Origin: Candidatus Pacearchaeota archaeon
GTDB taxonomy: Archaea; Nanobdellota; Nanobdellia; Pacearchaeales; GW2011-AR1
Direction of reading: 5' to 3'
DNA: 64,000 nucleotides
Assembly: GCA_023133415.1 (NCBI GenBank)
Contig: JAGLWM010000003.1
Span: 10,544 to 74,543 of the forward strand
The notes beneath the pieces were generated by a model. That model had not been told where the DNA came from and made no database searches. It worked only from the letters and a program-made list of their open reading frames with translations. The translations under genes were made by a program, and so were the position numbers. The first letter of the stretch is position 1, and each line of letters begins with the position of its first letter. This document shows, in pieces, positions 1,707 through 63,634 of this stretch.

Positions 1707-2744
1707 CTATTTCCACAAAACCTCAATATCATCCGTTCTCTCCCTCGGCGAAATATCAACTTTATCTAAATCCCTTTCAAAAATCCCGGCTTTATACATC
1801 TTCAACCCCAAATACCCAATCATCGCCCCATTATCAACCAACAACCCCCTATCCGGACAAAAAAACTTCGCCCCTCTCTCTTTACACATAATCTTGCACA
1901 TTTCCTGCAACCTCGAATTACAAGCGACGCCACCTCCAAGCAAAAGTTCTTTTTTCCCAGTATGCGCCAACGCCCTCTCCGCCGCCTCAACCAACATCGC
2001 AAAAATAACCTCCTGCATCGAATAAGCAATCCTCCCAAAATTCTCTCCCTTCTCAATCAAATTCCTAATCTGAGTCTGTATCCCTGAGAACGAAACATCC
2101 ATCCCTTTCACCGAGTACGACAACTCCAACAAGCCAGATTCTGACCTCTGACCTCTGATTTCTGACCTCTGATTTCTGACCTCTGACCTCTCAAATTCAA
2201 CAGCAAGCTGTTGAATTCGCGGTCCCCCCGGAAAACCCAGCCCCATATTCCGCGCAACCGTATCAATAAAATTCCCAACACCCAAATCCAACGTCTCACC
2301 AAAAACTCGAAACTTCCCACCCTCAAATGCAACAACCTGCGTATTCGCCCCACTCGCATAAAGCATCACCGGATCCTTCGCCCCAACACTCTCCCCAATA
2401 ACCAAATGCGCCACACAATGATTTACCCCAACAATAGGTACACCCAACCTTTTTGCCAATCTCTTCGCAAAAGCCATTCCCTCCAACAAACACGGAGCCA
2501 GCCCAGGAGCATTTGAAAGAGCGATCGCTTCAATTTCCTCTTCGGTAATACCCGCCTCCTTCAAAGCTTCATCATAAACTACGGGTGCAACTTCTTTATG
2601 ATGTCTTCGAACCTCAAGGGGAATCATCCCGCCTTTTTCAGTCGTATAACTATCTTTAATATTTGACAAAATTTTTCCGCCCCAATTCAAAACAGCCACT
2701 CCAAAAGTATGCGCCGTTGATTCAACTCCCAAAATGTATTTCAT
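1707..2744 (-). CDS. kae1: tRNA N6-adenosine threonylcarbamoyltransferase Kae1
   Basis: ILGVESTAHTFGVAV, NHCVAHL, KGMDVSFSG and GGGVACN motifs. Start moved to MKYILG. Carries the repeat-encoded insert RSEVRNQRSEIRGQRSESG. Confidence 0.9.
   Translation of the reverse strand: MKYILGVESTAHTFGVAVLNWGGKILSNIKDSYTTEKGGMIPLEVRRHHKEVAPVVYDEALKEAGITEEEIEAIALSNAPGLAPCLLEGMAFAKRLAKRLGVPIVGVNHCVAHLVIGESVGAKDPVMLYASGANTQVVAFEGGKFRVFGETLDLGVGNFIDTVARNMGLGFPGGPRIQQLAVEFERSEVRNQRSEIRGQRSESGLLELSYSVKGMDVSFSGIQTQIRNLIEKGENFGRIAYSMQEVIFAMLVEAAERALAHTGKKELLLGGGVACNSRLQEMCKIMCKERGAKFFCPDRGLLVDNGAMIGYLGLKMYKAGIFERDLDKVDISPRERTDDIEVLWK
2140..2190. repeat. Heptanucleotide tandem tract (TCTGACC/TCTGATT x7) in frame inside kae1
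   Basis: Units start at 2140, 2147, 2154, 2161, 2168, 2175 and 2182. An 11-bp perfect inverted repeat follows at 2194-2204 / 2207-2217. Confidence 0.85.
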
Positions 2745-2819
2745 AGAAAAAGAAACGATTCCATATTTAAAAATATTAGTTAAAAACAAAATGTGGAAGA
2801 ATGCAAAATAAATTAATAC

Positions 2820-3839
2820 CTATTTCTTTTTAGAAATTTTCTTTTTCACTTTTTTCCTCGCTACCTTTTGCAAATCTACAACCCTATCGTCTTCATCAAC
2901 AATTTCTTTTCTCAAAATTTCCTCAATAATATCTTCCATGGTAATAATTCCTACAAACTCCTTATATCTATTAAATACAATAGCTAAATGAATTCTCTCT
3001 TTAATAAACTGATTAAGAACGGAATCTAAATTTTTCTTATTAGTCACTTCTAATAAATTTGTTCTATAAATATCTTTTACTTTCGCTCCTTTCTTAACTC
3101 CGACTAAGTCTTTTGAATAAAGAATCCCGACGAGGTTATCAATTTTCTTTTTATAAATAGGGATACGAGTAAATCCTGAATCCTTAATATTTTTCAATAT
3201 CTCTTCAGTTAAGATGGCGTCTACTTCAAGTGAAAAAACAACTATTCTGGGGGTCATCACGTCTTCGACATTTTTTTTCGAAAAGGAAAGTGCACCGAGT
3301 ATTATTTTCTCTTCGTCAGAATCAATACTGGATTTTGATGAATCTTCATGAAGTCTAATAATTTCCTCTAACTCATGTCTCGACCAGATTGTTGGCATCT
3401 CCTCACCAAGTATTTTGTCTAATACTTTTGCAATTGGCCAACAAATAGGATACAAAATAAATATCAAGCCTTTAACTATCCAAACCGTTTTAGCACCGAC
3501 GGTTAAAGCATAACGAGAAACGGTTGCTTGCGGAATAATTTCTCCAAAAATAACAATAAGACCTGTAGCAATTACTCCTGCAAAAACTCCATTGGCAATA
3601 CTCCCAAGAAAAAGTGCAATAGCAGAATTCACCGCCACATTTCCCAACAATAAAGTACAAAGTAGCAAATTACCCCTTTTACGAACACTATATACTTTCT
3701 TGGCTTTTTTATCACCAAGTTTAATCTTACGCTCCAACTCTGTCTTATCTAACCCAAGTAATCCAAGTGTTAAACCTGAAAAAAGACCAGATAAAGAAAC
3801 CAAAATAATGATAATGATAATAACCCAACACTCTACCAT
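2820..3839 (-). CDS. CNNM/CorC-type transporter (DUF21 membrane domain + CBS pair)
   Basis: Hydrophobic N-terminal half, then CBS-like segments (MTPRIVVFSL..., HLAIVFNRYKEFVGIITMEDIIEEI). Confidence 0.8.
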   Translation of the reverse strand: MVECWVIIIIIILVSLSGLFSGLTLGLLGLDKTELERKIKLGDKKAKKVYSVRKRGNLLLCTLLLGNVAVNSAIALFLGSIANGVFAGVIATGLIVIFGEIIPQATVSRYALTVGAKTVWIVKGLIFILYPICWPIAKVLDKILGEEMPTIWSRHELEEIIRLHEDSSKSSIDSDEEKIILGALSFSKKNVEDVMTPRIVVFSLEVDAILTEEILKNIKDSGFTRIPIYKKKIDNLVGILYSKDLVGVKKGAKVKDIYRTNLLEVTNKKNLDSVLNQFIKERIHLAIVFNRYKEFVGIITMEDIIEEILRKEIVDEDDRVVDLQKVARKKVKKKISKKK

Positions 3840-3933
3840 TTTTTTAAAATTGTAACAAAGTTTTTAAAAGTTTAGTATTATTATCTCGCATAACATATAA
3901 ATACTATCCTCTTTTTACCCCATAAAAAATAAC

Positions 3934-4968: not shown

Positions 4969-5000
4969 ATACTTATAAAGAGAAATCCCCAAATAATTTC

Positions 5001-8234: not shown

Positions 8235-8253
8235 AAAAAGAAGGATTGCTAAA

Positions 8254-10194: not shown

Positions 10195-11160
10195 TTAAAA
10201 AACATCAGGCAACATCTTAGGACCCAATTCTTTTTCAATATCAACTAATTCGTATTCAATTAAATTTTCTGCAAAAGTTTCCTTTATTTTATTAATTTCT
10301 CTTTTAAGCTCTTCAGGATGCTTATAAATTATTTGAAACATTGTATTAAATTTTCCAATATTTAATGAAAAGGCGTGCACCCTGTCTCTTTGTTTAGCAT
10401 AAACCAACAATTTATTTTGAAACAACTTAGATAAATTATTCATCTTGATATTCATTAAAGTTAAATTATACCCAATTACATCCAGATTAAGAAAAATTCT
10501 ATAACCAAGAATCATATTTTTTTCAATACGTTTTAAACGATAATTTATTGTTTCAATTTTTGATTTAACTTTGTGTGCTAATTCAACAATTTTTATATTT
10601 GCATTTTTTGCAAGAATATATAATATTTTTTTATCTAAGTCATCTAAAATAATTGGTTTGCTTTCTGTATAACTTAAGGTTTTATCGTGTTCTATTTTAC
10701 CAAAAATTTTTAATGGAAAATAATGGGTTTCAATTGGCTCAAGAATTTCATAGTCCAATAATTCGTGTTTCCATAATTCATAAAGATAAGAAATAAGTTC
10801 TAAAATATTTTTTTTGTCTTTTGTAAAAATAGAAATCATATAATCCCATTGTCCATAACAAAATATTCGCGTGAAGATTAAAATGTTTTTCAGATTATTT
10901 ATTTCAGCTAATTTTTTTATCTGAGGATTTTTCACCCTTAGTTTAATAATATAATTTTTGTCATAACCAAGTGCATGTAAATTAATTCCTGCAAGATATT
11001 TATCAATTAATCCGGATTTTTCATATTTCTTAATTCTGTATTCTGCTTGTTCTCTTGAAATTCTGCGTTTTTTCGCAATCTGAGTTATAGGAGTTCTAAA
11101 GTTATGGAAAATATAACTGAGCAATTTCTTATCAATTTTATCTAATTTTAATTCCTGCAT
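10195..11160 (-). CDS. Tandem-duplicated Lrp/AsnC-type transcriptional regulator
   Basis: Two HTH modules: DKIDKKLLSYI...ISREQAEYRIKKYEKSGLI and DDLDKKILYILAKNANIKIVELA...INYRLKRIEKN. Divergent from the peptide operon. Confidence 0.7.
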   Translation of the reverse strand: MQELKLDKIDKKLLSYIFHNFRTPITQIAKKRRISREQAEYRIKKYEKSGLIDKYLAGINLHALGYDKNYIIKLRVKNPQIKKLAEINNLKNILIFTRIFCYGQWDYMISIFTKDKKNILELISYLYELWKHELLDYEILEPIETHYFPLKIFGKIEHDKTLSYTESKPIILDDLDKKILYILAKNANIKIVELAHKVKSKIETINYRLKRIEKNMILGYRIFLNLDVIGYNLTLMNIKMNNLSKLFQNKLLVYAKQRDRVHAFSLNIGKFNTMFQIIYKHPEELKREINKIKETFAENLIEYELVDIEKELGPKMLPDVF

Positions 11161-11309
11161 ATTTTGATAAAGAGTAAGATGTTTTTAAAGTTTACTAATT
11201 AACTTAAAATTCATTATATTATTTCACTTAGTTTAGTAAAATTTAATCAAAACCTTTAATTTGGTTTAATACTTAATAATAGTAATTAAATTAAGGAGAC
11301 AAAAATAAA

Positions 11310-11525
11310 ATGGCAATAGGATGGTCAGGAAGTAGCGGAGGAGTAGGAGAAGCTTATAGGAAATTTCTTTTGATAGATGTAGAAGCAGGAATTAATAAAT
11401 ATAAATCTTTGTATGAAAATATTTCTGAACAACAAGTTGAAGCAAGGAAATTTTATCAAAAAGCAATTACTGGATTAGGGAAACTAAAACAAGAAATGAT
11501 TAAAGATTTGGAAGGGAGAGTATAA
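11310..11525 (+). CDS. Small peptide A (71 aa, Cys-free), candidate radical SAM substrate or partner
   Basis: MAIGWSGSSGGVGEAY... is a paralogue of the next ORF: 21 of the first 34 residues identical by hand alignment. AAGGAG lies upstream. Confidence 0.6.
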   Translation: MAIGWSGSSGGVGEAYRKFLLIDVEAGINKYKSLYENISEQQVEARKFYQKAITGLGKLKQEMIKDLEGRV

Positions 11526-11526
11526 G

Positions 11527-11730
11527 ATGGCAATGGGATTTTCAGGAAGTAATGCAGGAATTGGGGAAATTTATAAAAAAGTTTTGTATGTAGATGTGGA
11601 AGCAGGGATAAGAAAATATCAGGAGTTATTGCCCGAAGTTAGTGAAAATGTTAAACCTCTTTATGAAACTACAATTAAGAATTTAGAATTATTACTTTCT
11701 CAAATGCAAGAGTTTGGAGTGAGGAAATAA
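11527..11730 (+). CDS. Small peptide B (67 aa, Cys-free), paralogue of peptide A
   Basis: MAMGFSGSNAGIGEIY...DVEAGIRKY. Starts 1 nt after the stop of peptide A. Confidence 0.6.
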   Translation: MAMGFSGSNAGIGEIYKKVLYVDVEAGIRKYQELLPEVSENVKPLYETTIKNLELLLSQMQEFGVRK

Positions 11731-11731
11731 A

Positions 11732-12790
11732 ATGGCAGTAGGATTTTTAGGAAGTAACGGGGAAATAGAAAAAGGAAAGAATTTCGCAAAAGTAGATTTA
11801 TTAAACAGACCTTTAGAAGTTTCTTATTTTGTAAATAATTTATGCAATCTTAATTGTAAACATTGTTATGTTGGTTATTCTAATCCAAATGATGATTTAA
11901 GCATTCAAGAATGGAAAAATACTTTTGATGAATTAATTGATTTGGGAGCATTAACTTTTGGGAATGTTGGGAGAGAGCCGTTATTGGCTTGGGAAAAAAC
12001 AAGTGGACTCTTAAAATATTTTCAGGATAAAAAAGCGAAAAATCCAAAATTACGTTATGGATTAGTTACAAATGCCACGCTATTTAATGAAGAAAAAATA
12101 AAAAGATTAAATGAACTTAATCCTGATTATTTAGATATTAGTATAGACGGCACAGAGCAGATACATGATTTTATCAGAGGAAAAGGAAATTACCAAAGAG
12201 CTTATAAAAATCTCCAGGAAATCAAAGAAACTGCTCCAAATTTATTAAATAAAATTTTTATTAGTTATACTTTAATGCAACCAAATAAAAATACTCTTAA
12301 AGAAACAATTCAAGAAATGAACCAATTAGGAATAAATAATTTTTTGATTTCTCCTTATGTTAAAACAATTCATGATGAAGGAAATTTGGGATTAGATAAT
12401 TCGGAAATTGCAGATATTTATGAAAATATTAAAATAGGAAATACAGTTGATTTTTCAAAGACAAAAAATTTAGAGATTCTTTTAAAGTCAGATTATGATA
12501 CACAAAAAGATTTAATGGATTTATTAGTAAAAAGAAAAATAATCAATGTTGACAATTTATTAATTGATGAATACGGAGTTATTTTTAATAAAGAAGAAAA
12601 AGAAAATAATTCAAAAATAATTTTAAATTTCATTCCAATTCCAGAAACTTTAACACGGGCTATAAGAATTAGTCATGATGGATATGTTGGAGGATGTGAA
12701 GAAATGTTCCACGAAAATTACCCAGAATTAACAGTAGGAAACATAAAAGAAAAAAGTATCACAGAAATTCTAGGCAACAAAAATCCTTAA
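11732..12790 (+). CDS. Radical SAM enzyme (no SPASM/twitch cysteines)
   Basis: CX3CX2C (CNLNCKHC), GREPLL, LVTNATL and ISIDG motifs. Only one further Cys in the protein. N-terminus MAVGFLGSNGEI repeats the peptide motif. Starts 1 nt after the stop of peptide B. Confidence 0.85.
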   Translation: MAVGFLGSNGEIEKGKNFAKVDLLNRPLEVSYFVNNLCNLNCKHCYVGYSNPNDDLSIQEWKNTFDELIDLGALTFGNVGREPLLAWEKTSGLLKYFQDKKAKNPKLRYGLVTNATLFNEEKIKRLNELNPDYLDISIDGTEQIHDFIRGKGNYQRAYKNLQEIKETAPNLLNKIFISYTLMQPNKNTLKETIQEMNQLGINNFLISPYVKTIHDEGNLGLDNSEIADIYENIKIGNTVDFSKTKNLEILLKSDYDTQKDLMDLLVKRKIINVDNLLIDEYGVIFNKEEKENNSKIILNFIPIPETLTRAIRISHDGYVGGCEEMFHENYPELTVGNIKEKSITEILGNKNP

Positions 12791-14562: not shown

Positions 14563-15291
14563 ATGAATACAGAAATTGTAAAAAAAACCCTTGAAGAACT
14601 TAATTTTGATAAAAAAGAAACAGAAATATATTTAGCCTTGTTGAAAATAGGCGAAACCACTGCGACAAAAATATCCCGAGAGACAAAAATAGAAAGAACT
14701 CTTGTTTATTACATCATTGAAAAATTAACTAATAGAGGTTTAGTTAATTTTAAACTGAAAAACAATGTAAAATATTATTCTTCTTCAAATCCTGAAAAAA
14801 TCTTGGAGGAAATCAAAGAAAAAGAAATTTCATTCAGAAAAATACTTCCCTATTTAGAACAAATAAAAAATCAAACGTATGAGGAGGAAATTAAGGTTGA
14901 TATTTACAAAGAGTTCGCAGGATTAAAAACCGTCACGAATGAAATATTTAAAGATAACAAAAAATTCTTTATATTAGGAGAACAAGGACAGGTTCAAATT
15001 AATTACCCAGAATATTCCGAACAATATCTTAGGAGATTAAAAGAAAATAAAATTAAAGAAAAAGTTATTGTAAGAGAAGATTTGCGAGGAAAAATCAAAA
15101 AATCAAAAAACTCGCAATTCAAATATATTTCTAAAAATTTACTAAGCCCAACAACCACCTTAATTTGCAATAATAAAATTTTAATCACAATCTGGGAAAA
15201 ACCTACATTTAATATTTTAATTACAAGTAAAAAAATCGCAGATTCATATAAAGCATATTTCAATCATTTCTGGAAAATTGCTAAAAAATAA
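14563..15291 (+). CDS. TrmB-family transcriptional regulator
   Basis: LNFDKKETEIYLALLKIGETTATKISRETKIERTLVYYIIEKLTNRGLV. Paralogue of 22211 and 60592. Confidence 0.8.
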   Translation: MNTEIVKKTLEELNFDKKETEIYLALLKIGETTATKISRETKIERTLVYYIIEKLTNRGLVNFKLKNNVKYYSSSNPEKILEEIKEKEISFRKILPYLEQIKNQTYEEEIKVDIYKEFAGLKTVTNEIFKDNKKFFILGEQGQVQINYPEYSEQYLRRLKENKIKEKVIVREDLRGKIKKSKNSQFKYISKNLLSPTTTLICNNKILITIWEKPTFNILITSKKIADSYKAYFNHFWKIAKK

Positions 15292-15332: not shown

Positions 15333-15402
15333 AGCGCGAACTCAGAGCGCAACAAAAAACCCGAATACCGAACAGCGAAGCGCCCTAATACCAAATACCT
15401 AA
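15333..15402. repeat. Composite element: AGCGCGAACTCAGAGCGCAAC head plus 7-nt-period tract
   Basis: The head at 15333-15353 matches 44364-44384 at 20 of 21 positions. Units follow: CCGAATA CCGAACA GCGAAGC GCCCTAA TACCAAA TACCTAA. Confidence 0.6.
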
Positions 15403-22961: not shown

Positions 22962-24383
22962 TCACTCCCCAAACACCCTATCCAAAACCGCCCCTCTCTT
23001 CTCCGCCCCCAAACATTTCTGACAAACCTTCGACCCATCCAACGCCTCACCAAAATATTTCGCACTCGCTGACCCATGACATCTCAAACACGCCCTCAAA
23101 CAATTCACACATCGTTCCTCCCCAGAAACACAATCTTTTCTCATATGGTCTTTACAAACATATTTCCCACATCCAAAACACATTATAGAACAATCTTTAC
23201 AAAGCAATTTCCCACAAGCCGAGCAACTTCGCTTCAAACATTTCTTACAAAATATCTCTCCGCACTCTCCACATCTTACCAAGCAACGCTCACAATTAAT
23301 ATGTCCCGCCGAACACAAATTCAAATTAACAATCTCGCGACCACACGATTCACAAACCAACTTATTCAAAGTTTTAGTCAACGGATCATAACTCATCTTA
23401 ACAAGCCTCCCCGCTCCCCCTCCGACCACCGACCTCCGACCACCGACCTCCGATTTTAAATGTAAATTAAAACTAAATACAGGATAATAAATCACCGTCA
23501 TATTAACCAACTTGTTATCAATATTCAAACTATATTTATGCATCACATCCTTAATCGTAAACTCCTGCTCTTTCAAAATCTTATTCCTCGAATCATCATC
23601 CCCAATCTTAACAAGACCCTTCCTCAACCTATCCAACCTCGCTCCCAAAACCTTTTTCTCTTCACCATCCGCCATCCTCAAAACCAATTCAACCTCACGC
23701 ATTTTCTCAATAGCCCCAGACAAATCCCCTCCAAGCTCACTCATCAAATTCCCGTAATGCCCCCTAATTCTCCCAATTTCCCCTTCCATCTTCGCTCCCA
23801 AGGCCTCACCAATCTCCGTCGTCCTCCCCTCCAACATTCCCCTTAACGCCTCCCGCGCAACATCATAACTCTTCTCCATATGCTTACTCGAAACCTCAGC
23901 CCCTTTTCCCTCAACAACACTATAACCCGACAAATCTCCCTCAACAATTTTCCCATCATGAATATAAATCTCATTCACAACCTGTTCCGACTCATTCAAA
24001 TACTGAAACGTCGTCATAAAAGTAAACCGCGAAAAAAAGTTATTCTTATGTTTCTTCACTATATTGTCAATCTCACAATTCTTAAAACTAATCACCTTCT
24101 TTATCTCCTTAATCGGATTAACATCAAAATCAATCTTCAGCAAAGTCGTTTTTCCAACTCCCTTTAAAAACTTCGTCATCGCTGCCAACAATACACTCCC
24201 TCTCCCAACAAATTCTGCCCCACTGCTCTGACCAGAAAAACTTAAACGATAGGGCGCAACTTTTCCATACAAATCCTCAAAATTTTTCGGAACACTTTCC
24301 ACTACTAAAACATCACCATCTTTGAAAATATTACATTTCAAATTCTCAAAAAACTCAATCGTAAACTTCTCAATTTGTTCCAT
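22962..24383 (-). CDS. CxxC-rich multi-zinc-ribbon protein, last gene of the SNF2 unit
   Basis: The C-terminal ~110 aa contain at least 10 CxxC pairs (CESCG, CERCLVRCGECG, CKKCLKRSCSACG, CKDCSIMCFGCG, CVNCLRACLRCHG, CQKCLG). I do not recognise the N-terminal domain. Confidence 0.6.
   Translation of the reverse strand: MEQIEKFTIEFFENLKCNIFKDGDVLVVESVPKNFEDLYGKVAPYRLSFSGQSSGAEFVGRGSVLLAAMTKFLKGVGKTTLLKIDFDVNPIKEIKKVISFKNCEIDNIVKKHKNNFFSRFTFMTTFQYLNESEQVVNEIYIHDGKIVEGDLSGYSVVEGKGAEVSSKHMEKSYDVAREALRGMLEGRTTEIGEALGAKMEGEIGRIRGHYGNLMSELGGDLSGAIEKMREVELVLRMADGEEKKVLGARLDRLRKGLVKIGDDDSRNKILKEQEFTIKDVMHKYSLNIDNKLVNMTVIYYPVFSFNLHLKSEVGGRRSVVGGGAGRLVKMSYDPLTKTLNKLVCESCGREIVNLNLCSAGHINCERCLVRCGECGEIFCKKCLKRSCSACGKLLCKDCSIMCFGCGKYVCKDHMRKDCVSGEERCVNCLRACLRCHGSASAKYFGEALDGSKVCQKCLGAEKRGAVLDRVFGE
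23409..23455. repeat. Heptanucleotide tract (CGACCAC/CGACCTC) in frame in the zinc-ribbon gene
   Basis: Units at 23423, 23430, 23437 and 23444, with degenerate flanks. Encodes SEVGGRRSVVGGGAGR. Confidence 0.75.
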
Positions 24384-32061: not shown

Positions 32062-33477
32062 TTATTCGCCTTCAATCAAACCCCTCATAACCTCAGTCAC
32101 AATCTTAAAATCAGCCCGCCTCTCAGACAACCTCATCACCGCCCCAATCAAATAATTCAACGACGCATCCTTCCCAGATTTATATTCCTCAACAACATGC
32201 GCATTCTCATCAATCACCTGCTGACACAAATTCTCAACTGCCTCTCTTGAAATACTCCCAATCTCCTCCTCATGATCCTTCAAACTAAAACTCTTCGGCA
32301 CAAAATCATTCATAATCTGCTTCGCCTTCAAAACTGTAATCTCTTTCTTCTCAACCGCTCTAATCAACTCCCCCAAATGCTCAGGCAAAATCTCAACATC
32401 CTCATCCTCAAGCGTCTTCTTATTATAATTCAAAACCCTCAACAACTCAATCGTCACCCAACTCATATTCTTCTTCACATCAATCCCAAACTCAACCAAT
32501 TTTTCAAAAAACTCAACCAATTCCAAATTCCTCGTCAAAATCTTCGCATCCTTTTCACCAACCTCATACTTCTTCAACAACCTCTCCAACTTAACCTCAG
32601 GCATCTCCGGCATCTCTTTCTTTATCTCACTAACCATCTTCTTATCAATTTTCATCACAGGCAAATCCGGATCAGGAATAAACCGATAATCACTCGCACC
32701 CTCCTTTGACCGCATCTTCACCGTCTTTCCTAACTTCTCATCAAACGCCAACGTATCTCGCTTCTGTTCAATCCCCTTCTCAAAATTCTCAACCTGCCGC
32801 GCAATCTCATAATCAATCGCCTTCCTAATCTTCTCCAAACTATTCAAATTCTTCATCTCAACCCTCTCGCCATAAGTCGAAACATTCACATCAACCTTAA
32901 TCCCAGCATTCTTTCGCACCGCCTTAATATAACTCAAACTTAAAACCAGACCTTTCAACCACTCAATAACCTGTTCCGAATTACTAAACTCTGGCTCCGT
33001 CACAATCTCGACCAAGGGCAAACCACTCCGATTATAATTAATTCGCCCCGTCTCAGGATTCCATTGCGCAGGATCCTCTTCAAGATGCAACTCAGTCAAA
33101 TTAATTCCTTTAAATTTCCCCCCAACAGCATTCGTCGTCGCGTGCGCCCCGGAAATCGTCGTCTGATACCCCTTCGGATTATCTGCCCAATCATAATGCT
33201 TCCTCTGCCAAATCAAATTATCATAATTAATCCTAGACCTAGAAACCAACGCAATCTGTACCATCTTTTTCACAGCCTCAACATTCGGCGCCATCGGTTT
33301 CGACCCCGGCGTCCCCGTACAAATCGGACAAATCCTAGAATTAGGCATATCTTCCGACCCTCCGACCACCAAACCCCGATCACCCGAAACCAGACACATA
33401 CAAAATAATTTCTCCCGAGTATCAAGATACCCATGAATTTCCAAACCAATCTTCACCGGAAATGTTTTTTCTGCCAT
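32062..33477 (-). CDS. gatB: Asp/Glu-tRNA amidotransferase subunit B
   Basis: FPVKIGLEIHGYL, LHLEEDPAQW and NRSGLPLVEIVTEPEF motifs, with a helical C-terminal tail domain. Confidence 0.9.
   Translation of the reverse strand: MAEKTFPVKIGLEIHGYLDTREKLFCMCLVSGDRGLVVGGSEDMPNSRICPICTGTPGSKPMAPNVEAVKKMVQIALVSRSRINYDNLIWQRKHYDWADNPKGYQTTISGAHATTNAVGGKFKGINLTELHLEEDPAQWNPETGRINYNRSGLPLVEIVTEPEFSNSEQVIEWLKGLVLSLSYIKAVRKNAGIKVDVNVSTYGERVEMKNLNSLEKIRKAIDYEIARQVENFEKGIEQKRDTLAFDEKLGKTVKMRSKEGASDYRFIPDPDLPVMKIDKKMVSEIKKEMPEMPEVKLERLLKKYEVGEKDAKILTRNLELVEFFEKLVEFGIDVKKNMSWVTIELLRVLNYNKKTLEDEDVEILPEHLGELIRAVEKKEITVLKAKQIMNDFVPKSFSLKDHEEEIGSISREAVENLCQQVIDENAHVVEEYKSGKDASLNYLIGAVMRLSERRADFKIVTEVMRGLIEGE
33354..33391. 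repeat. Degenerate CGAC-type tract inside gatB
   Basis: CCGACCCTCCGACCACCAAACCCCGATCACCCGAAACC encodes part of the extended loop SGDRGLVVGGSE. CGA spacing is 8, 14 and 8 nt rather than a clean 7. Confidence 0.35.
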
Positions 33478-37208: not shown

Positions 37209-38642
37209 ATGAAACACGATTACAAAAAAATTGGATTGAAATCTGGCTTAGAAATTCATCAACAATTAGACACCCACAAACTCTTTTGCTCTTGCCCATC
37301 AATCCTCCGACAAGACAAACCCCAATACGAAATCCAAAGAACACTCAATCCAGTCATAGGAGAAACCGGCGAAATAGACACAGCAGTCGCACACGAAGCA
37401 AGCCAAAATAAAAACTTCATCTATCAGGTTTACGACACAAACTGCCTCGTCGAATTAGACGAAGAACCACCCCACACAATCAACCAAGAAGCCACAAAAA
37501 TAACACTCCAAATCGCACACCTTCTAAACTGCAAAATATTCCCAGTCACCCAAGTCATGCGAAAAACTGTAATCGACGGCTCAAACACCTCAGGCTTCCA
37601 ACGAACAGCGCTAATTGCCCACGATGGCTACGTAGAAATATCTTCAGGCAAAAAAATCGCAATCGACTATCTCATGCTAGAAGAAGACTCCGCCCGAAAA
37701 GTCACCGACCACCGACCTGCGACCTGCGACCTACAACCTGCGACCTGCGACCTGCGACCAATTTTCAAATTGGATCGCTTAGGCATCCCCTTAGTTGAAA
37801 TCACAACCGGCCCACATCTGCACAGCCCAGACGAAATCAAAGAAGCCGCACTAAAAATCGGAGAAATCCTACGAGCCTGCAAAGTCAAACGAGGTATCGG
37901 AACAATCCGTCAAGATGTCAACATCTCAATCAAAGACAGTAAACGAGTCGAAATCAAAGGCTTCCAAAATCCAAAAATGATGCAAAAAACGATAGACATA
38001 GAAATAACAAGACAGCAAAAATGCATCAAAGAAAAATCCTGCAAAAACGAAGTTCGAAACGCTCTCCCCGACGGAACAACAGAATTTCTCCGACCGATGC
38101 CAGGCGCAGCGCGAATGTATCCTGAAACCGATCACCCTCTACTGAAAATCACTCGCGACCTAATCAATGAAACAAAAAAGAACCTCCCAAAACTAGCCTC
38201 CGAAAATACCTCCTACCTCCAAAAATTCGGCCTCAACCCAGAACTAATCAAGCTAATCCTAAAACAAAACAAACTAGAAGATTTCAAAACCCTAACCCAC
38301 GAACACAATAACCCAAACCTCATAGCCAAAATGCTAACCCTTTTTCAATCCAAGAAAGAAAAAATCTCAACCGATAAACTAGAAGAAATCCTAGAAAAAA
38401 TCTCCAAAAAAGAAATCCACGAAACTGATGTAAAAACAATAATGCAAAAAATCTCCCAAGGAATCTCCCTAAAAGAAGCTATGGAAAAACCAAGCATAGA
38501 CCTAAAATCCGAAGCCCAAAAAATTCTAAAGGAAAAACCCGGACTAACTCAAGGTGCATATATGGGATTAATTATGGGCAAATTTAACGGACAAGTTTCT
38601 GGGAAAGAGGTTATGGAAGTTTTGAGAGAATTATGTAGTTAA
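37209..38642 (+). CDS. gatE: Glu-tRNA(Gln) amidotransferase subunit E
   Basis: GLKSGLEIHQQL, LEEDSARK and LDRLGIPLVEITTGP motifs. Start moved to MKHDYKK. Carries the repeat insert TDHRPATCDLQPATCDLRP. Confidence 0.9.
   Translation: MKHDYKKIGLKSGLEIHQQLDTHKLFCSCPSILRQDKPQYEIQRTLNPVIGETGEIDTAVAHEASQNKNFIYQVYDTNCLVELDEEPPHTINQEATKITLQIAHLLNCKIFPVTQVMRKTVIDGSNTSGFQRTALIAHDGYVEISSGKKIAIDYLMLEEDSARKVTDHRPATCDLQPATCDLRPIFKLDRLGIPLVEITTGPHLHSPDEIKEAALKIGEILRACKVKRGIGTIRQDVNISIKDSKRVEIKGFQNPKMMQKTIDIEITRQQKCIKEKSCKNEVRNALPDGTTEFLRPMPGAARMYPETDHPLLKITRDLINETKKNLPKLASENTSYLQKFGLNPELIKLILKQNKLEDFKTLTHEHNNPNLIAKMLTLFQSKKEKISTDKLEEILEKISKKEIHETDVKTIMQKISQGISLKEAMEKPSIDLKSEAQKILKEKPGLTQGAYMGLIMGKFNGQVSGKEVMEVLRELCS
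37706..37761. repeat. Heptanucleotide tandem tract (CGACCNN x8) in frame inside gatE
   Basis: Units at 37706, 37713, 37720, 37727, 37734, 37741, 37748 and 37755. The palindrome CCAATTT-TC-AAATTGG at 37758-37773 overlaps the end. Confidence 0.85.
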
Positions 38643-39253
38643 TCTTTTATAACAAATAATTCTCTTATTTTTAAAGCTGTATAAATAATTGCTTTTTCTC
38701 TTGAAGTTATCTTTGTCTTCCGAAAATTTGCATATCTTAACTTTAAACTTCTTTCCAAATTTTTTACTTTTTGTAAATCGGCATTTTCAAAATCTACATT
38801 GCCAAGATATGTTTCATCAAAATTCGCACCCTCAAGCTTTGCGCCTCTAAGCTTTGCACTCGTAAGATCTGCATTTTTAAAGTTTACATTGCCAAGATAT
38901 GTTTCATCAAAATTCGCACCCTCAAGCTTTGCACTCGTAAAATTCGCACCCTCAAGCTTTGCATCCCAAAAATATACCCATTCAAGATTCGCACCCTCAA
39001 AATTCACACTCTTTCCTTGAGTATGAGGCAAATATAATCCTCGTGCTTGAATATATTTAAATTCAGAATTATTAATAATAAAAGGATTTAACTTAAAATC
39101 TTCTTTTTTAAGATAATTCCGCATTTCTTCGAATCTTTCATTACCGCTTAAATTAAAACCTGTTTCTAATTCAATTCCAGAAAAGTCCCTTTCTCCTTCT
39201 ATGGTTTTCTTTACAAATTCCTCCCCTCGCATTTGTTTAAGTTTTGTTACCAC
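38639..39253 (-). CDS. Pentapeptide-repeat protein
   Basis: A[ND]LxGANF-type repeats. A 48-nt DNA unit is repeated at 38795-38842 and 38885-38932. Confidence 0.8.
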   Translation of the reverse strand: MVTKLKQMRGEEFVKKTIEGERDFSGIELETGFNLSGNERFEEMRNYLKKEDFKLNPFIINNSEFKYIQARGLYLPHTQGKSVNFEGANLEWVYFWDAKLEGANFTSAKLEGANFDETYLGNVNFKNADLTSAKLRGAKLEGANFDETYLGNVDFENADLQKVKNLERSLKLRYANFRKTKITSREKAIIYTALKIRELFVIKD

Positions 39254-43508: not shown

Positions 43509-44353
43509 ACAATACAATAATTCCAGATCAAGACAAACTGGAACAAATAAAAAAGAGATTCCAAAAACAAGGATCAGGATCAATCCACATCCTAACCGAC
43601 TTCGACAGAACTCTAACCCACTCACAAACAGCTGAAGGGAAAAATATTCCATCAATGATTTCTATATTAAGAAATGGAAACTATCTTACGAAAGGATACG
43701 CAAAACGAGCTCATGCCCTTTTTGATAAATACCATCCGATAGAAATTGACTCAAATATTCCAATCTACGAAAAAAAACAAGCCATGAAAGAATGGTGGAC
43801 ATCACACTTCAAATTACTAATAGAATCAGAACTGGAAAAAAAAGATCTTGAAGCAATCGTAAATACAGGAATAATAAGACTGCGTGACGGAACAAAAGAA
43901 TTATTCGATTATCTCCGCCAAAAACAAATCCCTATAGCAATAATGTCATCCAGTGGAGTCGGAAATGCAATCCAAATGTTTCTAGAAAAAGAAGGAATAT
44001 ATTCTAACAATGTTCATATAATCACAAACATCTACAGCTTCGACAACAACGGAAAAGCAACAAATGTTTCTGAACCAATAATCCACATCATGAACAAAGA
44101 CGAAACAGCAATCCATGATCACCCAGAAATTTACGACAAAATAAGGGACAGAAAAAATGTAATTCTTCTAGGAGACAGCCTAGGCGACATTGGAATGATA
44201 ACTGGATTCGACTACAATAATATTCTCAAAATCGGCTTTCTAAATCCTGGAGAAGAACAAAATGAATCAGAATACAAAAAAAACTTTGACCTAATAATAA
44301 CAAATGACTCACATATCAAACCAATAAATAAAATAATCCAAAACATAAAATGA
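43496..44353 (+). CDS. HAD-superfamily pyrimidine 5'-nucleotidase-like (UMPH-1 type)
   Basis: Motif I DFDRTLT and LGDSLGDIGM. Overall layout resembles cytosolic 5'-nucleotidase III. Confidence 0.65.
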   Translation: MEKMNNTIIPDQDKLEQIKKRFQKQGSGSIHILTDFDRTLTHSQTAEGKNIPSMISILRNGNYLTKGYAKRAHALFDKYHPIEIDSNIPIYEKKQAMKEWWTSHFKLLIESELEKKDLEAIVNTGIIRLRDGTKELFDYLRQKQIPIAIMSSSGVGNAIQMFLEKEGIYSNNVHIITNIYSFDNNGKATNVSEPIIHIMNKDETAIHDHPEIYDKIRDRKNVILLGDSLGDIGMITGFDYNNILKIGFLNPGEEQNESEYKKNFDLIITNDSHIKPINKIIQNIK

Positions 44354-45762
44354 ATAAAAGACAAGCGCGAACTAAGAGCGCAACAAATTCGACCACCGAC
44401 AATCGACAATCGACAACCGACAAATTTGTAACTCTAAAAACCAAACTCCGACAAATCCAACAAGGAAAGCTAACCGCCCTAGAAAACCTAATGCACTTCT
44501 CAAAAAAAATCGCAACACCCGAAACCGAAGACCTAAACATCTTCCTCTCCCTAAACGAAGATGCAATCGAACAAGCAAAACAAATAGATAAACGAATAAA
44601 AGAAAACAAGGCAGGTAAACTCGCCGGACTCTGCTTCGCAATCAAAGCAAACATCTCCGCAAAACACCAAACAATATCCTGCGCGTCCAAAACCCTCGAA
44701 AACTACACCGCCCCATTCAATGCAACCGTGATAAACAAACTCCTAGCTGAAGACGCAATCCTACTCGGCATCCTAAATATGGACGAATTCGCGCTAGGCT
44801 CCTCAGGGGAAACCTCGGCATTCGGACCAACAAAAAACCCAACTAACCCAGAACTAATACCAGGCGGAACATCTTCAGGACCAGCAGCAGCAATAGCAGC
44901 CAACCTAGCCGATTTCACACTAGGCTCCGACACAGGAGGCTCAATCCGAAACCCCGCCTCGCACTGCGGAATCACAGGCCTAAAACCAACATACGGCGCA
45001 GTCTCAAGATACGGACTACTAGACGCCGCAATGTCCTTTGACACAATCGGACCAATGACAAAAACTCCAGAAGACGCCAGATTAATATTCAACATAATCA
45101 AAGGACAAGACAACTTCGACCAAACCACCACCGACTACCGAGGGTCTACCCCAGACTCACCGAAAGGCGCAATCGGGCTAGTAAATATAAAAAAATTCGC
45201 CGACGAAAGAATAGCAAACCTAATCGAAAAACAAGCCAAAGAAATAGCAAAACAACACAACTGGACAATAAAAAAAATAGACCTACCTCTAGACATAGCA
45301 CTAGAAACATTCTACATAATAAACTACACAGAATTCTTTTCAAGTTCACGAAAATACGATGGAAGAAGATTCGGCAAAAAAATCGAAGACTCCGCAGGAC
45401 CAGAAGTGCTCCGAAGAATTATCGGTGGCTCCGAAATCACAAAAGCAGAACATGACGGAAAATTCTACCGCGAAGCCCTAAAAGCCAGAAACCACATAAA
45501 ACTCCAATTCAAAAAGATATTTGAAGAAGTCGATGCAATAATTCTACCAACATCACCAAAACTCCCGCACAAAATCGGAGAAACAATAACAGTAGAAGAA
45601 ATGTACGCATACGACGTAACAACAGTGCTAGCAAACATAGCCGGCCTCCCAGCAATATCAATCCCAGCAGGACAAATAGATAACAAAAACGTCGGACTCC
45701 AAATCATGGTCCCACACTTTCAAGAAGAATTAATTTTCAAACTAGCAAAGGATTTTGAGTAA
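44350..45762 (+). CDS. gatA: Asp/Glu-tRNA amidotransferase subunit A
   Basis: Amidase signature GGTSSGPAAAIA and GSDTGGSIRNPASHCG. The first 25 codons are repeat-derived. Confidence 0.9.
   Translation: MNKRQARTKSATNSTTDNRQSTTDKFVTLKTKLRQIQQGKLTALENLMHFSKKIATPETEDLNIFLSLNEDAIEQAKQIDKRIKENKAGKLAGLCFAIKANISAKHQTISCASKTLENYTAPFNATVINKLLAEDAILLGILNMDEFALGSSGETSAFGPTKNPTNPELIPGGTSSGPAAAIAANLADFTLGSDTGGSIRNPASHCGITGLKPTYGAVSRYGLLDAAMSFDTIGPMTKTPEDARLIFNIIKGQDNFDQTTTDYRGSTPDSPKGAIGLVNIKKFADERIANLIEKQAKEIAKQHNWTIKKIDLPLDIALETFYIINYTEFFSSSRKYDGRRFGKKIEDSAGPEVLRRIIGGSEITKAEHDGKFYREALKARNHIKLQFKKIFEEVDAIILPTSPKLPHKIGETITVEEMYAYDVTTVLANIAGLPAISIPAGQIDNKNVGLQIMVPHFQEELIFKLAKDFE
44364..44424. repeat. Composite element: AGCGCGAACTAAGAGCGCAAC head plus CGACNNN x5 tract
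   Basis: Head at 44364-44384. Units at 44390, 44397, 44404, 44411 and 44418. Palindrome ACAAATTTGT at 44420-44429. Confidence 0.75.
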
Positions 45763-52485: not shown

Positions 52486-52564
52486 CACATCAACTAAAAA
52501 TTTAAATCATTTTTAAAACTATTTATTCGACTCTTCCCACTCCCCAATGCCCACTTCTACCCAA

Positions 52565-52606
52565 CCCCTAATACCAAATCCCTAATACCTATCCCCAATC
52601 CCTTCC
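52565..52606. repeat. 7-nt-period C-rich tract (CCCCTAA TACCAAA TCCCTAA TACCTAT CCCCAAT ...)
   Basis: 52566-52585 matches 15383-15402 at 19 of 20 positions. Overlaps the last codons of the KH-protein gene. Confidence 0.45.
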
Positions 52607-53151
52607 CTCAACCCCAAATCCTCATCCATCTTATTAATCTTCGAACCCTGCCTCTCTAAAAACCCAAATACATTCCCATGCTTCGACCCACTAATCAAAC
52701 TCTCAATCCCCTGGATCGTCATAGCCAAATGATCAGCATCGACAATCACTCCGACATCATTCCCACTAATCACAATCGCAGCCCCAGTCAACTTCTCAAT
52801 CGTCTGACGAGCCCTACCCTCTCGCCCAATAATCCGCGACCTCACATCCTTCAAATTCTTCCGCCGTGTATGCTCCTTCACCTCAATAAATTCCAAAACA
52901 AAATCTTCATTCAACAACAACAACGCATCATCAATATCAAACCCAAAATCAACCGCATGAAGGACCTTTTCAACTAAAAACTCATTTAACTCATTCCCTT
53001 TAACGGTAATAATTCCGACCCTCGCCCCCTTATTCCGCAATTTGGGGTGTGCAGAACTGCGCCCAAACCCAATCTGAACCTTAACCTTATTCTCAATTAC
53101 AGGCACAGCCCTCTTAACTCTCCGCATATTCGAAATCAAAACACTTCTCAT
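52582..53151 (-). CDS. KH-domain RNA-binding protein (aDim2/Pno1-like)
   Basis: IIGREGRARQTIEKLTGAAIVISG and ...QGIESLISGSKHGNVFGFLE. Start moved to MRSVLI. Confidence 0.7.
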   Translation of the reverse strand: MRSVLISNMRRVKRAVPVIENKVKVQIGFGRSSAHPKLRNKGARVGIITVKGNELNEFLVEKVLHAVDFGFDIDDALLLLNEDFVLEFIEVKEHTRRKNLKDVRSRIIGREGRARQTIEKLTGAAIVISGNDVGVIVDADHLAMTIQGIESLISGSKHGNVFGFLERQGSKINKMDEDLGLREGIGDRY

Positions 53152-58145: not shown

Positions 58146-58220
58146 AAATATTGAGGAAAATTGTTAACAATCACTCAAATACTGCAAAACTTATTAAAAC
58201 TCATTAAATTCTATATTATT

Positions 58221-58613: not shown

Positions 58614-58713
58614 ATAGTGCCCTACGTCACCTTCGCTACTTGGATATGTTTTTGCCATTAAATAGCCTCCCACCCCTAAAGTCTTAAATACCACACTCCA
58701 ATCTAACTAACAG

Positions 58714-58923: not shown

Positions 58924-59005
58924 AAAAAAAATTAAATCAAAACAAAGTTTTGGAAAATAAGTTTTCTACTTGCGAGAAATTTCTTTTTCTAAAAGAAAGA
59001 AATCA

Positions 59006-60411: not shown

Positions 60412-60591
60412 TAAATCACACCCATAATAACATACTCAATATCCCCAAACCGAATCTTCCTATCTCCAATTTATATTGCATAAAACACAATCAAAAATAT
60501 CTTATTTAAACTTTCTCATTGTAACCCCTATAAAAAGATAACATAATCCAAACATTTATAAAAGAAATTATAATTCTATAGTAACAATAAA

Positions 60592-61964: not shown

Positions 61965-62020
61965 ATAAACCAGCCTCCTCCAACCACAATTAATTTAAAT
62001 CAAATAATATCTATAATTCT

Positions 62021-62329
62021 ATGGCTATAGAAAAATTCACATTTTATGCAGATACCATAAAAGAGATAAATTGGATAATTAAACATTTAAAAAAATTGCC
62101 GAGAAAAACATTAAAATCTCTTGAATCCCTTACCTCTACAAAAAACATAGGAATAGATTCTCCAGTATCAGTAAAAAACCTGATACGCATATATCCTCTT
62201 AGTGGAGAAATTAGAGAATTTGACAGCCCCGCAGAAAGCAATGATTATTCAACCGGAACAAGATTTAAACATAAGGGAATAGAATATTGTATTTTCAAAC
62301 AACTCCCTCCTTGGTTAAAAAAATATTAA
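62021..62329 (+). CDS. Hypothetical protein
   Basis: ORF only, low-GC island composition. Confidence 0.4.
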   Translation: MAIEKFTFYADTIKEINWIIKHLKKLPRKTLKSLESLTSTKNIGIDSPVSVKNLIRIYPLSGEIREFDSPAESNDYSTGTRFKHKGIEYCIFKQLPPWLKKY

Positions 62330-63634
62330 TCAAAAATCCCTAATCCTCATTCCCGCCCCCATCTCCCTCTCAACTTTCTTAACCAACTTAAACACCTCGA
62401 CAATCCCGCTCTTATCTCTAACCCACCAAAAGCCCTTCTTTTTAAAAACCCTGTCCCCTTTCGCCCTTCTAAATTTCTTAATCGCATCCCCCAATCCAAC
62501 TGACGGACCCCTAACCTCAATTTCCAATTTCTCCTCAACAACCAAATATCCCTTCGCCCTCTGCCCGCCCAAATAATCAAACTCCTTCATCAAAACCTTC
62601 TGCTGCTTCCGAGTCAACTCTCTGGCAAAAAAATCCAAAAGTTTCTTCATCTTCGTCCCAGCAATATCACCCTCCTGTCTGTCTGTCCTCAAATTAATCT
62701 CGACGAATCTTGCCTTATTCTTAACAGCAAACTTCTTCATCCCCTCAACATCAATCTCCCTCTTCTTAAAAAACTCCAACGACGATGATTTTAGAAATTC
62801 CCTAGCAACATCAGCAAATTTTCCAAAAGTCTCAAATCCCAAACCAGCAGTCACATTCCTAAACTTATAAGTCGGATCAATCAAAACAACGGGACACTGC
62901 AACTTCGAACTATTCAACTCTCTCAAAACCTCTCCTTTATTCCTAAAATACATTAACGGATCAATAACAACCTGCTCATCCCCCTTGACCCGACCACCGA
63001 CCACCGACCACCGACCACCGACCACCGACTTTCGACCACCGACTTTCGTCATCCCCTTCAAAAATTTAACAAACCCCCCAAAATAAATAACCAAAATCTC
63101 CAATGAATACCCACTAAAACCATGCATATAACTCTCCGCCCCATAACAACGATTCGCCCGACAAAACGCTTTCGCCAACTTTATCTCATCGGCAATCTCC
63201 GGATTCTTTTTTACCTCTCCACCAATATATTTGACATGACTCAAAGAAACATCCGTCACATTTTCCGCCAATTCGGGATCTTTATTCTTCACAACCGGAA
63301 TCACTTCCAACAAAACGCCATCACAAACAATCTGAAAATAATCCCGCGACCCATGCACTTTTTTCAAAACACCAGGTAAATCAATTTTCTTCAAAACCTT
63401 CTCCAACCCCAAAATATCCTCCGAATAATCGAACACAACAAAAATATCAACATCCTGCCGTCCCAATCTCCGAACCATCGTCCCCTTCGCCAAACTACCC
63501 CCAATATACGCCCTCAGACCTCGCTCCTTCAACTTTTTAATCAAATCGTTAGCAACACGCCGAAATCCTGAAACCTCACTCCCAGAAAGCGAAATCCTCT
63601 TTAATTCATTTCCCAAAAGCTCCTTCATATTCAT
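62330..63634 (-). CDS. cca: CCA-adding enzyme (archaeal class I tRNA nucleotidyltransferase)
   Basis: GSLAKGTMVRRLGRQDVDIFVVF and the overall archaeal CCA layout. Start moved to MNMKELL. Carries the repeat insert GGRKSVVGGRWSVVGGRVKG. Confidence 0.85.
   Translation of the reverse strand: MNMKELLGNELKRISLSGSEVSGFRRVANDLIKKLKERGLRAYIGGSLAKGTMVRRLGRQDVDIFVVFDYSEDILGLEKVLKKIDLPGVLKKVHGSRDYFQIVCDGVLLEVIPVVKNKDPELAENVTDVSLSHVKYIGGEVKKNPEIADEIKLAKAFCRANRCYGAESYMHGFSGYSLEILVIYFGGFVKFLKGMTKVGGRKSVVGGRWSVVGGRVKGDEQVVIDPLMYFRNKGEVLRELNSSKLQCPVVLIDPTYKFRNVTAGLGFETFGKFADVAREFLKSSSLEFFKKREIDVEGMKKFAVKNKARFVEINLRTDRQEGDIAGTKMKKLLDFFARELTRKQQKVLMKEFDYLGGQRAKGYLVVEEKLEIEVRGPSVGLGDAIKKFRRAKGDRVFKKKGFWWVRDKSGIVEVFKLVKKVEREMGAGMRIRDF
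62984..63053. repeat. Heptanucleotide tandem tract (CGACCAC x5, then CGACTTT/CGACCAC) in frame inside cca
   Basis: Units at 62991, 62998, 63005, 63012, 63019, 63026, 63033 and 63040, with degenerate units on both flanks. Confidence 0.85.

Follow-up and report, generated by a model that had tools for sequence, protein, structure and literature searches.

The chromosome of a Candidatus Pacearchaeota archaeon (assembly GCA_023133415.1) carries tandem tracts of seven-nucleotide units embedded in frame in housekeeping genes. We describe these tracts in a stretch of 64,000 nucleotides from contig JAGLWM010000003.1 (positions 10,544 to 74,543, forward strand), referred to below as the window, whose own numbering is used for all coordinates. 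The tracts are probably heptanucleotide microsatellites that are driven by slippage, filtered by reading frame and by the tolerance of protein loops, and given their polarity mainly by the asymmetry of the chromosome strands. The kind of repeat is known; what is new is the DPANN host, the in-frame residence in housekeeping genes across a clade, the locking of unit composition to strand asymmetry, and the bias towards a GTC/GAC core.

Arrays were detected in the window with Tandem Repeats Finder (TRF) and with a separate lag-match scan over periods 2-30, using 100 Markov-3 simulations as the null; 18 kb of adjoining contig were also covered (82 kb in all). The lag-match scan found strong arrays in the window at periods 7, 14, 21 and 28 only, bar one 30-nt array in a pentapeptide-repeat gene, and the 100 simulations produced none at any period from 2 to 30; looser thresholds left the period-7 picture unchanged. 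Three consecutive CCGACCA units with at most three mismatches were matched eight times in the window, always on the + strand, versus no match in 100 shuffles. Thus, the 7-nt tandem tracts proposed in an earlier note on this DNA are real. Period 7 was the only over-represented short period in the window and in ~394 kb from relatives with high strand skew, where nine period-7 arrays of at least three units were found against 0.2 expected; the window holds four to five such arrays in its 64 kb, and ~382 kb from low-skew relatives held one. When exact runs of neighbouring periods were compared across the window and 45 high-skew related loci (489 kb), the observed and expected numbers were 23 versus 0.67 for period 7, 29 versus 3.3 for period 6 and 3 versus 0.67 for period 8. 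Two or three assemblies of this genome encode identical tract-bearing proteins, and analogous tracts are present in many independent metagenomes, so the tracts are not an artefact of assembly, an outcome against which the note had advised a check; an artefact, moreover, would not preserve the reading frame as the in-frame tracts of these metagenomes do.

Five tracts of the window are strong, one is decayed and two are weak and lie at gene ends. The longest (62984..63053; positions and units are those of the + strand throughout) consists of five perfect CCGACCA units followed by CGACTTT/CGACCAC, ~9-10 units in all (TRF: 62990-63043, CCGACCA, 7.7 copies, score 87); it lies in frame in cca (62330-63634, - strand), encodes GGRKSVVGGRWSVVGGR and is flanked by an 8-11-nt direct repeat, TCATCCCC. 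The kae1 tract (2140..2191) is built from ~7.4 TCTGACC/TCTGATT units (TRF: TCTGACC, 7.4 copies, score 76) and encodes RSEVRNQRSEIRGQRSE in frame in kae1 (1707-2744, - strand). In gatE (37209-38642, + strand) a CGACCAC unit is succeeded by CGACCTG variants (37703..37761, ~8 units; TRF: 37703-37759, CGACCTG, 6.7 copies, score 80), encoding DHRPATCDLQPATCDLRP in frame. The gatA tract (44389..44424; TRF: 44389-44423, TCGACAA, 5.0 copies) comprises five units, CGACCAC then CGACAAT/CGACAAC, and encodes STTDNRQSTTD within gatA (44350-45762, + strand). It falls in a 26-aa N-terminal extension, the amidase domain beginning at residue 59; relatives begin at MTLKTKL directly after the tract position, and the window lacks that ATG. 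The fifth strong tract (23409..23455, CCGACCA/CCGACCT) encodes SEVGGRRSVVGGG in frame in a 473-aa Cys-rich open reading frame (ORF; 22962-24383, - strand), which the note had called a zinc-ribbon gene and which has no Pfam match; TRF reported CCGACCA at 23422-23453 and a 14-nt period with 100% matches at 23419-23453. The decayed tract (33354..33391, CCGACCC TCCGACC ACCAAAC CCCGATC and so on) is in frame in gatB (32062-33477, - strand). The labels previously given to the host genes agree with what we find (Kae1, GatB, GatE, a GatA-type amidase and the CCA-adding enzyme), and the peptides of 7-aa period that had been quoted, RSEVRNQRSEIRGQRSE, GGRKSVVGGRWSVVGGR and PATCDLQPATCDLRP, are present in the translations.

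The two weak tracts were also on the earlier list, of which the strong loci and the degenerate gatB locus were recovered. The tract at 15361..15402, between convergent gene ends, has three imperfect CCGAATA-like units followed by the 14-mer CCCTAATACCAAAT and is not reported by TRF. The other, listed as 52565-52606 and found here at 52558..52608, is G-free, with a 7/13/14-nt periodicity of CCCTAAT/ACCAAAT; TRF gave periods of 14, 13 and 7 with 64-88% matches, including a weak call at 52560-52602 (64% matches). It overlaps the 3′ end of a gene (52582-53151, - strand) assigned to the KH-domain proteins by a weak match to PF21800 (22.8 bits, under the curated cut-off of 27). Both tracts hold the exact 14-mer (15383-15396 and 52566-52579), both times at gene ends, and they are therefore partly of another unit type. 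The 14-mer reads ATTTGGTATTAGGG on the opposite strand, with the telomere-like hexamer TTAGGG, and may be a 3′-end or terminator-associated motif; a related (GGGATTT)n tract occurs in the related locus L136 at 14819-14842. Two further strong arrays, (CCGACCA)x5 at window coordinate -3642 and (CCGAATA)x5 at -857, lie outside the window in intergenic or gene-end positions with the same polarity as those within it. The description of the tracts as embedded in genes thus holds for six of the eight listed, which are in ORFs, and fails for two strong and two weak tracts that are intergenic or at gene ends. Tract density is ~2-4x higher between genes than within them, in agreement with a filter on reading frame in genes.

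All tracts are C-rich on the + strand regardless of the strand of the host gene. The + strand of the window is composed of A 36.8%, T 26.6%, C 24.3% and G 12.3%, giving a GC skew of -0.33 that is never positive in sixteen 4-kb bins. Genes occur in both orientations (41 on + and 45 on - in the 82 kb), and GC skew at third codon positions is -0.58 for + genes and, read on the coding strand, +0.73 for - genes, with an intergenic GC skew of -0.38. Because the skew is present in both gene orientations and between genes, it is an asymmetry of the chromosome strand and not of transcription. It extends to the proteins, which are T/P/Q/N/I/K-rich when encoded on + and G/V/E/R/F-rich when encoded on -. 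The asymmetry is common to ~30 related Pacearchaeota-like contigs. Among 80 metagenomic loci around cca orthologues, nearly all of those at or above ~55% identity are skewed by 0.25-0.5, cca lying on their G-rich strand, and the loci of more distant relatives are without that skew; gatE orthologues are on the C-rich strand, with skews of -0.29 to -0.37. A clean switch of GC skew was not seen in any related locus retrieved, and in a 546-kb relative gatE and cca are only ~35 kb apart, close together as they are in the window. Our literature searches turned up no earlier account of Pacearchaeota with heptamer tracts or extreme skew.

The uniform polarity of the tracts follows from the uniformity of this asymmetry across the window. 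Among heptamers of the background + strand with at least four G+C, 67% already have more C than G and 15% more G than C, so the compositional polarity of eight tracts is on its own weak evidence for a special process. Tract polarity is thus largely a local expression of chromosome-wide strand asymmetry. The shared + strand polarity noted earlier is confirmed in genes of both orientations; its attribution to a special, strand-specific process is not, as most of it reflects the chromosome-wide skew. One patch of the window departs from the general pattern: at 10745-12744 the + strand has a GC skew of ~+0.24, the reverse of its surroundings, in a segment around a radical S-adenosylmethionine gene (11732-12790, +) and a helix-turn-helix gene (10195-11160, -), and this patch may be a recent inversion or an acquired segment.

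Orthologous loops of relatives hold arrays at different stages. In the gatE loop that follows LEEDSAR, the window reads GTCACCGAC-CACCGACCTG and onwards in CGACCTG units; the related contig L229 has an identical start, GTCACCGAC-AACCGACAA, and (CCGACAA)4; L225 has (CACACCC)4; and L226 (CAAACAA CCAGCAA CCACGAA) and L227 retain only a decayed 7-nt periodicity. Tracts of (CGACCAG)4 and (GCGACAA)4 are found in the DNA of L227. At the gatB loop between CxC and CPxC, relatives carry other G-rich sequence with a period-7-like pattern, and L227 has a different unit. The kae1 loop contains GGRWSVV, EFGVRSS or KSEIRNQ tracts in different orthologues, GGRWSVV lying at the same loop as the tract of the window. 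The cca gene has several hot spots, and the L152 orthologue bears four arrays in one gene, of (GAAGTCG)n and (GAAGTCC)n. Most orthologues have no insert (baseline lengths: cca 405-412 aa, gatE 461-462 aa, kae1 327-331 aa). At the cca site, ~45 orthologous loci have an invariant 36-nt segment, often AAAGTTCGG (K-V-R), and in its place the window shows AAAGTCGG and then the array, TGGTCG and so on; comparison of the two suggests a local seed for the cca array. Judged from these alignments, the sequence of birth, homogenisation of differing variants in each lineage and decay looks like the behaviour of slippage arrays. Units that differ between lineages and then decay are unlike a mobile element or a conserved signal.

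The inserts fall where the encoded proteins can be expected to absorb them. Aligned to solved homologues, each of four inserts lies at a gap: Kae1 against 2ivn of Pyrococcus abyssi, GatE against 2d6f of Methanothermobacter thermautotrophicus, GatB against 3h0l of Aquifex aeolicus, where the tract adds 9 aa to the loop between CxC and CPxC, and the CCA-adding enzyme against 1r89 of Archaeoglobus fulgidus. An AlphaFold2 model of the cca protein, built with 38 orthologues, has a mean predicted local distance difference test score (pLDDT) of 82; the tract residues 202-218 score <50 and are without secondary structure, between a helix (188-199) and a strand (222-224), and in this model the tract peptide is probably a disordered loop. 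These observations bear out the proposal that the inserts sit where homologues have short connecting segments. The same loops accept unrelated types of insert in relatives, which indicates that the hot spots reflect tolerance rather than targeting. Across the clade the tract peptides are of a G/R/S/V/W type in cca and kae1, on the G-rich strand, and of a T/D/N/R/Q/P type in gatE, on the C-rich strand. One DNA family thus yields unrelated peptides in + and - genes, as the note had pointed out in arguing that the tracts arise at the level of DNA and not by selection on a peptide, an argument that we share.

Relative to close orthologues, the net inserts amount to 69 nt in cca (over the 36-nt segment), 45 nt in kae1 (where the segment is 15 aa longer than the modal 28 aa of 120 orthologues) and 39 nt in gatE. 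All three are multiples of 3, and the frame is therefore kept; none is a multiple of 21, so it is not kept by triplets of units, and the expectation that only 3-unit steps would be tolerated is not supported. The hosts are housekeeping genes (Kae1, the CCA-adding enzyme, GatB, GatE and GatA), and in this respect the tracts are, as had been suggested, unlike classical contingency loci.

According to the slippage model, arrays would be born from short local seeds and would grow by slipped-strand mispairing in a 7-nt register at replication. They would then be homogenised, with differing variant units sweeping through each lineage, and would decay by point mutation, as the orthologous loops suggest. 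The G+C-rich units would follow the strand, with C and A prevailing on the C-rich strand and G and T on its complement, a step that draws on the observed compositions; in the genome of the window most units share a CGAC core, which is GTCG on the G-rich strand. As coding sequence makes up ~87% of the DNA, most births would be genic, and the survivors would be those with a net length divisible by 3, free of stops in three frames and placed in a tolerant surface loop or at a terminus. The peptide would be a by-product, since it differs completely with gene orientation.

Several observations weigh against this model. We infer slippage from the pattern of the arrays, with no copy-number variation observed: L227 and L228, the sole pair of independent contigs of one species, are 100% identical, and a cluster look-up found no proteins >90% identical to those of the window from other organisms. 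The net inserts of 69, 45 and 39 nt, none of which is a multiple of 7, do not correspond to whole units and imply complex histories. Single-unit slips should be the commonest and should be lethal in these genes, yet the tracts reach 5-10 units; in essential genes they may have grown by rare multi-unit events, by compensating small indels, or under the shelter that polyploidy would give to frameshifted copies. The units are 43-71% G+C in a genome of 37% G+C, for which an extra assumption is needed, for example that only stable 7-nt slipped intermediates persist. The identical unit CCGACCA recurs in five of the eight tracts of the contig, and of the distinct units found across the clade ~2/3 are built around GAC when read on the C-rich strand, or GTC when read on the G-rich one; random seeds combined with composition do not predict such a shared core.

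The core bias deserves to be set out in full. GAC on the C-rich strand, mostly as CGAC, is present in 7/8 tracts of the contig, whereas GAC occurs in only 6.4% of heptamers in the background, where it stands to GTC as 56:44. Relatives were scanned with exact 8-aa words that have a heptamer reading, using 120 orthologues for each of cca, kae1 and gatE. In cca, on the G-rich strand, 10 distinct matches (a duplicate of the window's own protein left out) had GTC on the coding strand in 9/10 and GAC in none; in kae1, also on the G-rich strand, the nine matches had GTC in 4/9 and GAC in none; and in gatE, on the C-rich strand, 15 matches in 14 proteins had more C than G in 15/15, GAC in 8/15 and GTC in none. 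There are exceptions: the three TCTGTCC tracts of L227 place GTC on the C-rich strand, and several relatives have G-free units (CCTACCA, CTCCCAA, CCCCTAA). The core is accordingly a tendency; what holds robustly is the dependence of unit composition on the strand. Two possible sources of the core were rejected. Avoidance of stop codons is too weak a filter to cause it, as ~64% of random heptamers, computed from the strand composition, are stop-free in all frames; and selection for hydrophilicity is at odds with the W/V-rich inserts, such as GGRWSVV, that are taken by genes of the G-rich strand.

Arrays of this type are not peculiar to the clade. In a scan of genome contigs with four CGACNNN units followed by CGAC, the matches listed were unrelated, mostly high-GC bacteria (median GC 0.65, mean skew ~0), with no DPANN among them, and CGACNNN-type arrays are widespread among unrelated bacteria. 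Scans of viral contigs with (CCGACCA)3 and (CGACTTC)3 matched only unrelated contigs of 41-72% GC, with skew within ±0.15 except in L207 (+0.30) and L215 (-0.21); the signs of these two differ relative to the tract, and the scans have no bearing on polarity. High-GC bacterial and viral contigs that are unrelated and show no skew contain arrays of (TGGTCGG)n and (GAAGTCG)n as well. Among the contigs retrieved, L204/L211 and L209/L213 (IMG/VR 638276033_000001 and 2595698803_000001; ~150 kb, GC 0.59-0.63) each have two (TGGTCGG)16-19 arrays in opposite orientations.

A shared core and a uniform polarity could instead reflect a strand- and sequence-specific generator, coupled to replication, that would insert G+C-rich heptamer arrays, their core being GTC as read on the G/T-rich strand, at any tolerant site. 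A candidate would be lagging-strand priming or flap processing at R-T-M triplets by a monomeric primase of the Nanoarchaeum type, with units of about primer length added by repeated priming, or by short primers or flaps realigning in a growing array; arrays would feed their own growth, and their polarity would be fixed relative to fork direction. The orientation of GTC in 7/8 tracts of the contig, the frequencies of the core in cca, kae1 and gatE words, with no case of the opposite orientation in the three genes against a 56:44 background, and the association of tract density with the high-skew clade all speak for such a process. GTC also belongs to the (A/G)-T-(A/C) priming class of the monomeric primase NEQ395 from Nanoarchaeum equitans, likewise a DPANN archaeon (PMC10250227). 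However, NEQ395 primes in the order ATA > GTA > ATC > GTC, starting opposite the central T and stopping at ~9 nt (PMC10250227), such that GTC is the weakest of its four sites and its primers are longer than 7 nt. The three L227 tracts have the reverse orientation, many units of relatives, CACACCC among them, lack GTC/GAC altogether, and heptamer repeats are dominant also in bacteria, which use DnaG primases (PMC4679880). No primase was found among the proteins of the window that were scanned, and the G/T-rich strand is placed as the lagging-strand template only by analogy with the bacterial skew pattern. We therefore regard a dedicated generator as possible but unlikely.

It is improbable that the tracts work as polar signals in the DNA, bound by a protein of chromosome organisation, recombination or replication in the manner of FtsK-orienting polar sequences (KOPS), Chi-type motifs or iterons. 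Their uniform orientation on the chromosome strand would suit such a role, as would the presence of one genome-specific favoured unit, CCGACCA, at five loci, for which there are parallels in the heptamers of cyanobacteria, Xanthomonas and Beggiatoaceae (PMC4679880, PMC4692102). Yet neither positions nor units are conserved between relatives at 70-83% protein identity, many arrays are decaying, and the spacing on the contig is irregular. In single copy, CGAC occurs 249 times against a Markov expectation of 176 (1.4x) and GTCG 99 times against 73.5 (1.35x); both orientations are alike, and no polar enrichment of the KOPS or Chi kind beyond composition was found.

More doubtful still is selection on the protein, with the inserts serving as interaction loops or as linkers that are flexible or charged. 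Although inserts recur at the same loops in several proteins and the frame is kept, the peptides are wholly different with gene orientation, most orthologues do without them, the same tracts are present between genes, and the insert loop of the cca protein is predicted with a pLDDT <50. Because the hot spots hold unrelated insert types too, they point to tolerance and not to demand.

It is barely credible, finally, that the tracts were inserted by mobility or from a template, as miniature elements or break-repair fillers, or that they are assembly artefacts: the direct repeat flanking the cca tract and the separate palindrome-containing, in-frame mini-inserts that relatives have at the same loops favour the former, but the tracts have no terminal repeats, no direct repeats or target-site duplications flank any tract other than that of cca, no hairpins or cruciforms were found at the tracts on either strand (DNA folding z-scores of -1.9 to +2.8, minimum free energy of -3.2 kcal/mol or higher), orthologous arrays contain divergent units, and artefacts are countered by the agreement of two or three assemblies and by the in-frame tracts of many independent metagenomes.

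The mini-inserts form a second in-frame family in the cca and kae1 loops of relatives. Their DNA has ends like GTGTACCC...GGGCAA(A/G)G and short internal palindromes, and their peptides include RNSVPSKLGTKVPSSSGKG, AARGIPSRMGTSDKVPFSSGK and GHQTGVPLGVGLPGSTSDGAK. They were located in L136 (10256-10320, 10487-10520 and 10934-10990), L138 (399-460) and L153 (603-640), with the Kae1 orthologues P0250, P0251, P0281 and P0295. By its sequence this family looks like a mini-element resembling the Rickettsia palindromic elements (RPE) or miniature inverted-repeat transposable elements (MITE); a regular-expression search found no member in the window or in its 18-kb extensions.

Some further features of the window were noted. 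It encodes both GatD/GatE (35615-36877 and 37209-38642) and GatA/GatB (44350-45762 and 32062-33477). GatE has 477 aa and is without the ~130-aa insertion domain of M. thermautotrophicus GatE (2d6f residues ~265-394); its close orthologues, of 461-462 aa, are all just as short. Nested repeats of 15, 30 and 90 nt at 38777-39009 lie in an ORF (38639-39232, - strand) for a pentapeptide-repeat protein (PF00805), and hence are ordinary codon-level repeats unrelated to the heptamer tracts. At 33931-35205 (- strand), a 424-aa ORF matches the N-terminal constant region of bacterial shufflon proteins (PF04917, E 3.6e-10), which is unexpected in an archaeon.

The slippage model can be compared with known heptamer systems. 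In most prokaryotes rich in simple sequence repeats (SSRs), heptanucleotides are the commonest long class, as summarised from Mrazek, Guo & Shah 2007 (via PMC4679880; PMC4692102), so that repeats of this kind have already been described. The 7-nt register has been ascribed to a polymerase contact or footprint of ~7 nt, and non-triplet units of long SSRs (LSSRs) were seen to stay clear of coding regions (Mrazek et al. 2007, as relayed in PMC4679880). LSSRs, as outlined there, resemble the tracts in having head-to-tail 7-nt units beyond chance, a preference for 7 nt among 5-11 nt, lineage-specific abundance and presumed slippage. Those described in that outline are bacterial, mostly from large genomes and mostly intergenic, whereas the host here is a DPANN archaeon with a small genome; their non-triplet units are reported to avoid coding sequence, whereas six of the eight listed tracts are in frame in ORFs, five of them housekeeping genes; and the unit composition here is locked to an extreme strand asymmetry.

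Genome-specific heptamer families share further properties with the tracts, namely that one or a few favoured heptamers form short arrays at many loci and that single-base relatives of the heptamer are rarely tandem. Those of Calothrix are named short tandemly repeated repetitive (STRR) sequences. Unlike the families of the Xanthomonas and Nostoc type, the tracts of the window ignore gene orientation, follow the chromosome strand and sit in ORFs. Examples are GGGAATC in Xanthomonas, GGGGA(T/C)T in Nostoc and the heptamers of Calothrix (PMC4692102), and TAACTGA in Beggiatoaceae (PMC4679880); the Xanthomonas/Nostoc type is 89-93% intergenic, is placed relative to neighbouring ORFs and has no leading/lagging preference (PMC4692102).

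The magnitude of the strand disparity has a counterpart in a whole-chromosome G/C disparity of bacteria. In the order UBA1400 of candidate phyla radiation (CPR) bacteria, one strand has ~30% C and ~15% G over long distances with genes on both strands (PMC7143001), which matches the disparity of the window (C 24%, G 12%), known here from 82 kb of contig. UBA1400 is bacterial and has no heptamer tracts reported (PMC7143001); the present case is archaeal and has them. Two other systems resemble the tracts by their location in genes.

In neuO, a dispensable surface-modification gene that acts as a contingency switch, a 7-nt repeat in the ORF is read in three frames, three units encode a 7-aa repeat, and the full-length protein is made only if the frame is kept. 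The tracts described here are likewise in-ORF heptamers read in three frames; unlike dispensable NeuO, their hosts are Kae1, the CCA-adding enzyme, GatB, GatE and GatA, in which an off state should be lethal. Rickettsia palindromic elements are mobile in-frame mini-inserts of ~100-150 bp, palindromic and conserved in sequence. Like the tracts, they are short DNA-level insertions tolerated in frame in surface loops of housekeeping proteins; unlike them, the tracts are unstructured tandem heptamers. The NeuO repeat of E. coli K1 is outlined as a heptanucleotide variable number tandem repeat of a phase-variable O-acetyltransferase in PMC13001214.

Taken as slippage microsatellites, the tracts belong to a non-triplet class that is expected to be purged from essential genes and that here enters the same loops time and again, in Kae1, GatB, GatE and the CCA-adding enzyme, throughout a DPANN clade. 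They preserve a natural record of insertions that mutation has driven into proteins; all three frames are read, and the peptide depends on orientation. The accompanying strand asymmetry equals the most extreme cases in bacteria, and one may ask how these genomes are replicated, whether in one direction or with very long exposure of single strands. If replication proves to lie behind the core bias, the tracts would show which way forks travel, and perhaps what the primase prefers, in organisms that cannot be cultured; and should a strand- and sequence-specific generator prove true, the replication asymmetry behind the G/C disparity would continually make new loops in essential proteins. For DPANN proteins, alignments, phylogenies and predicted structures will all be distorted by the inserts and by the dependence of amino-acid composition on the strand.

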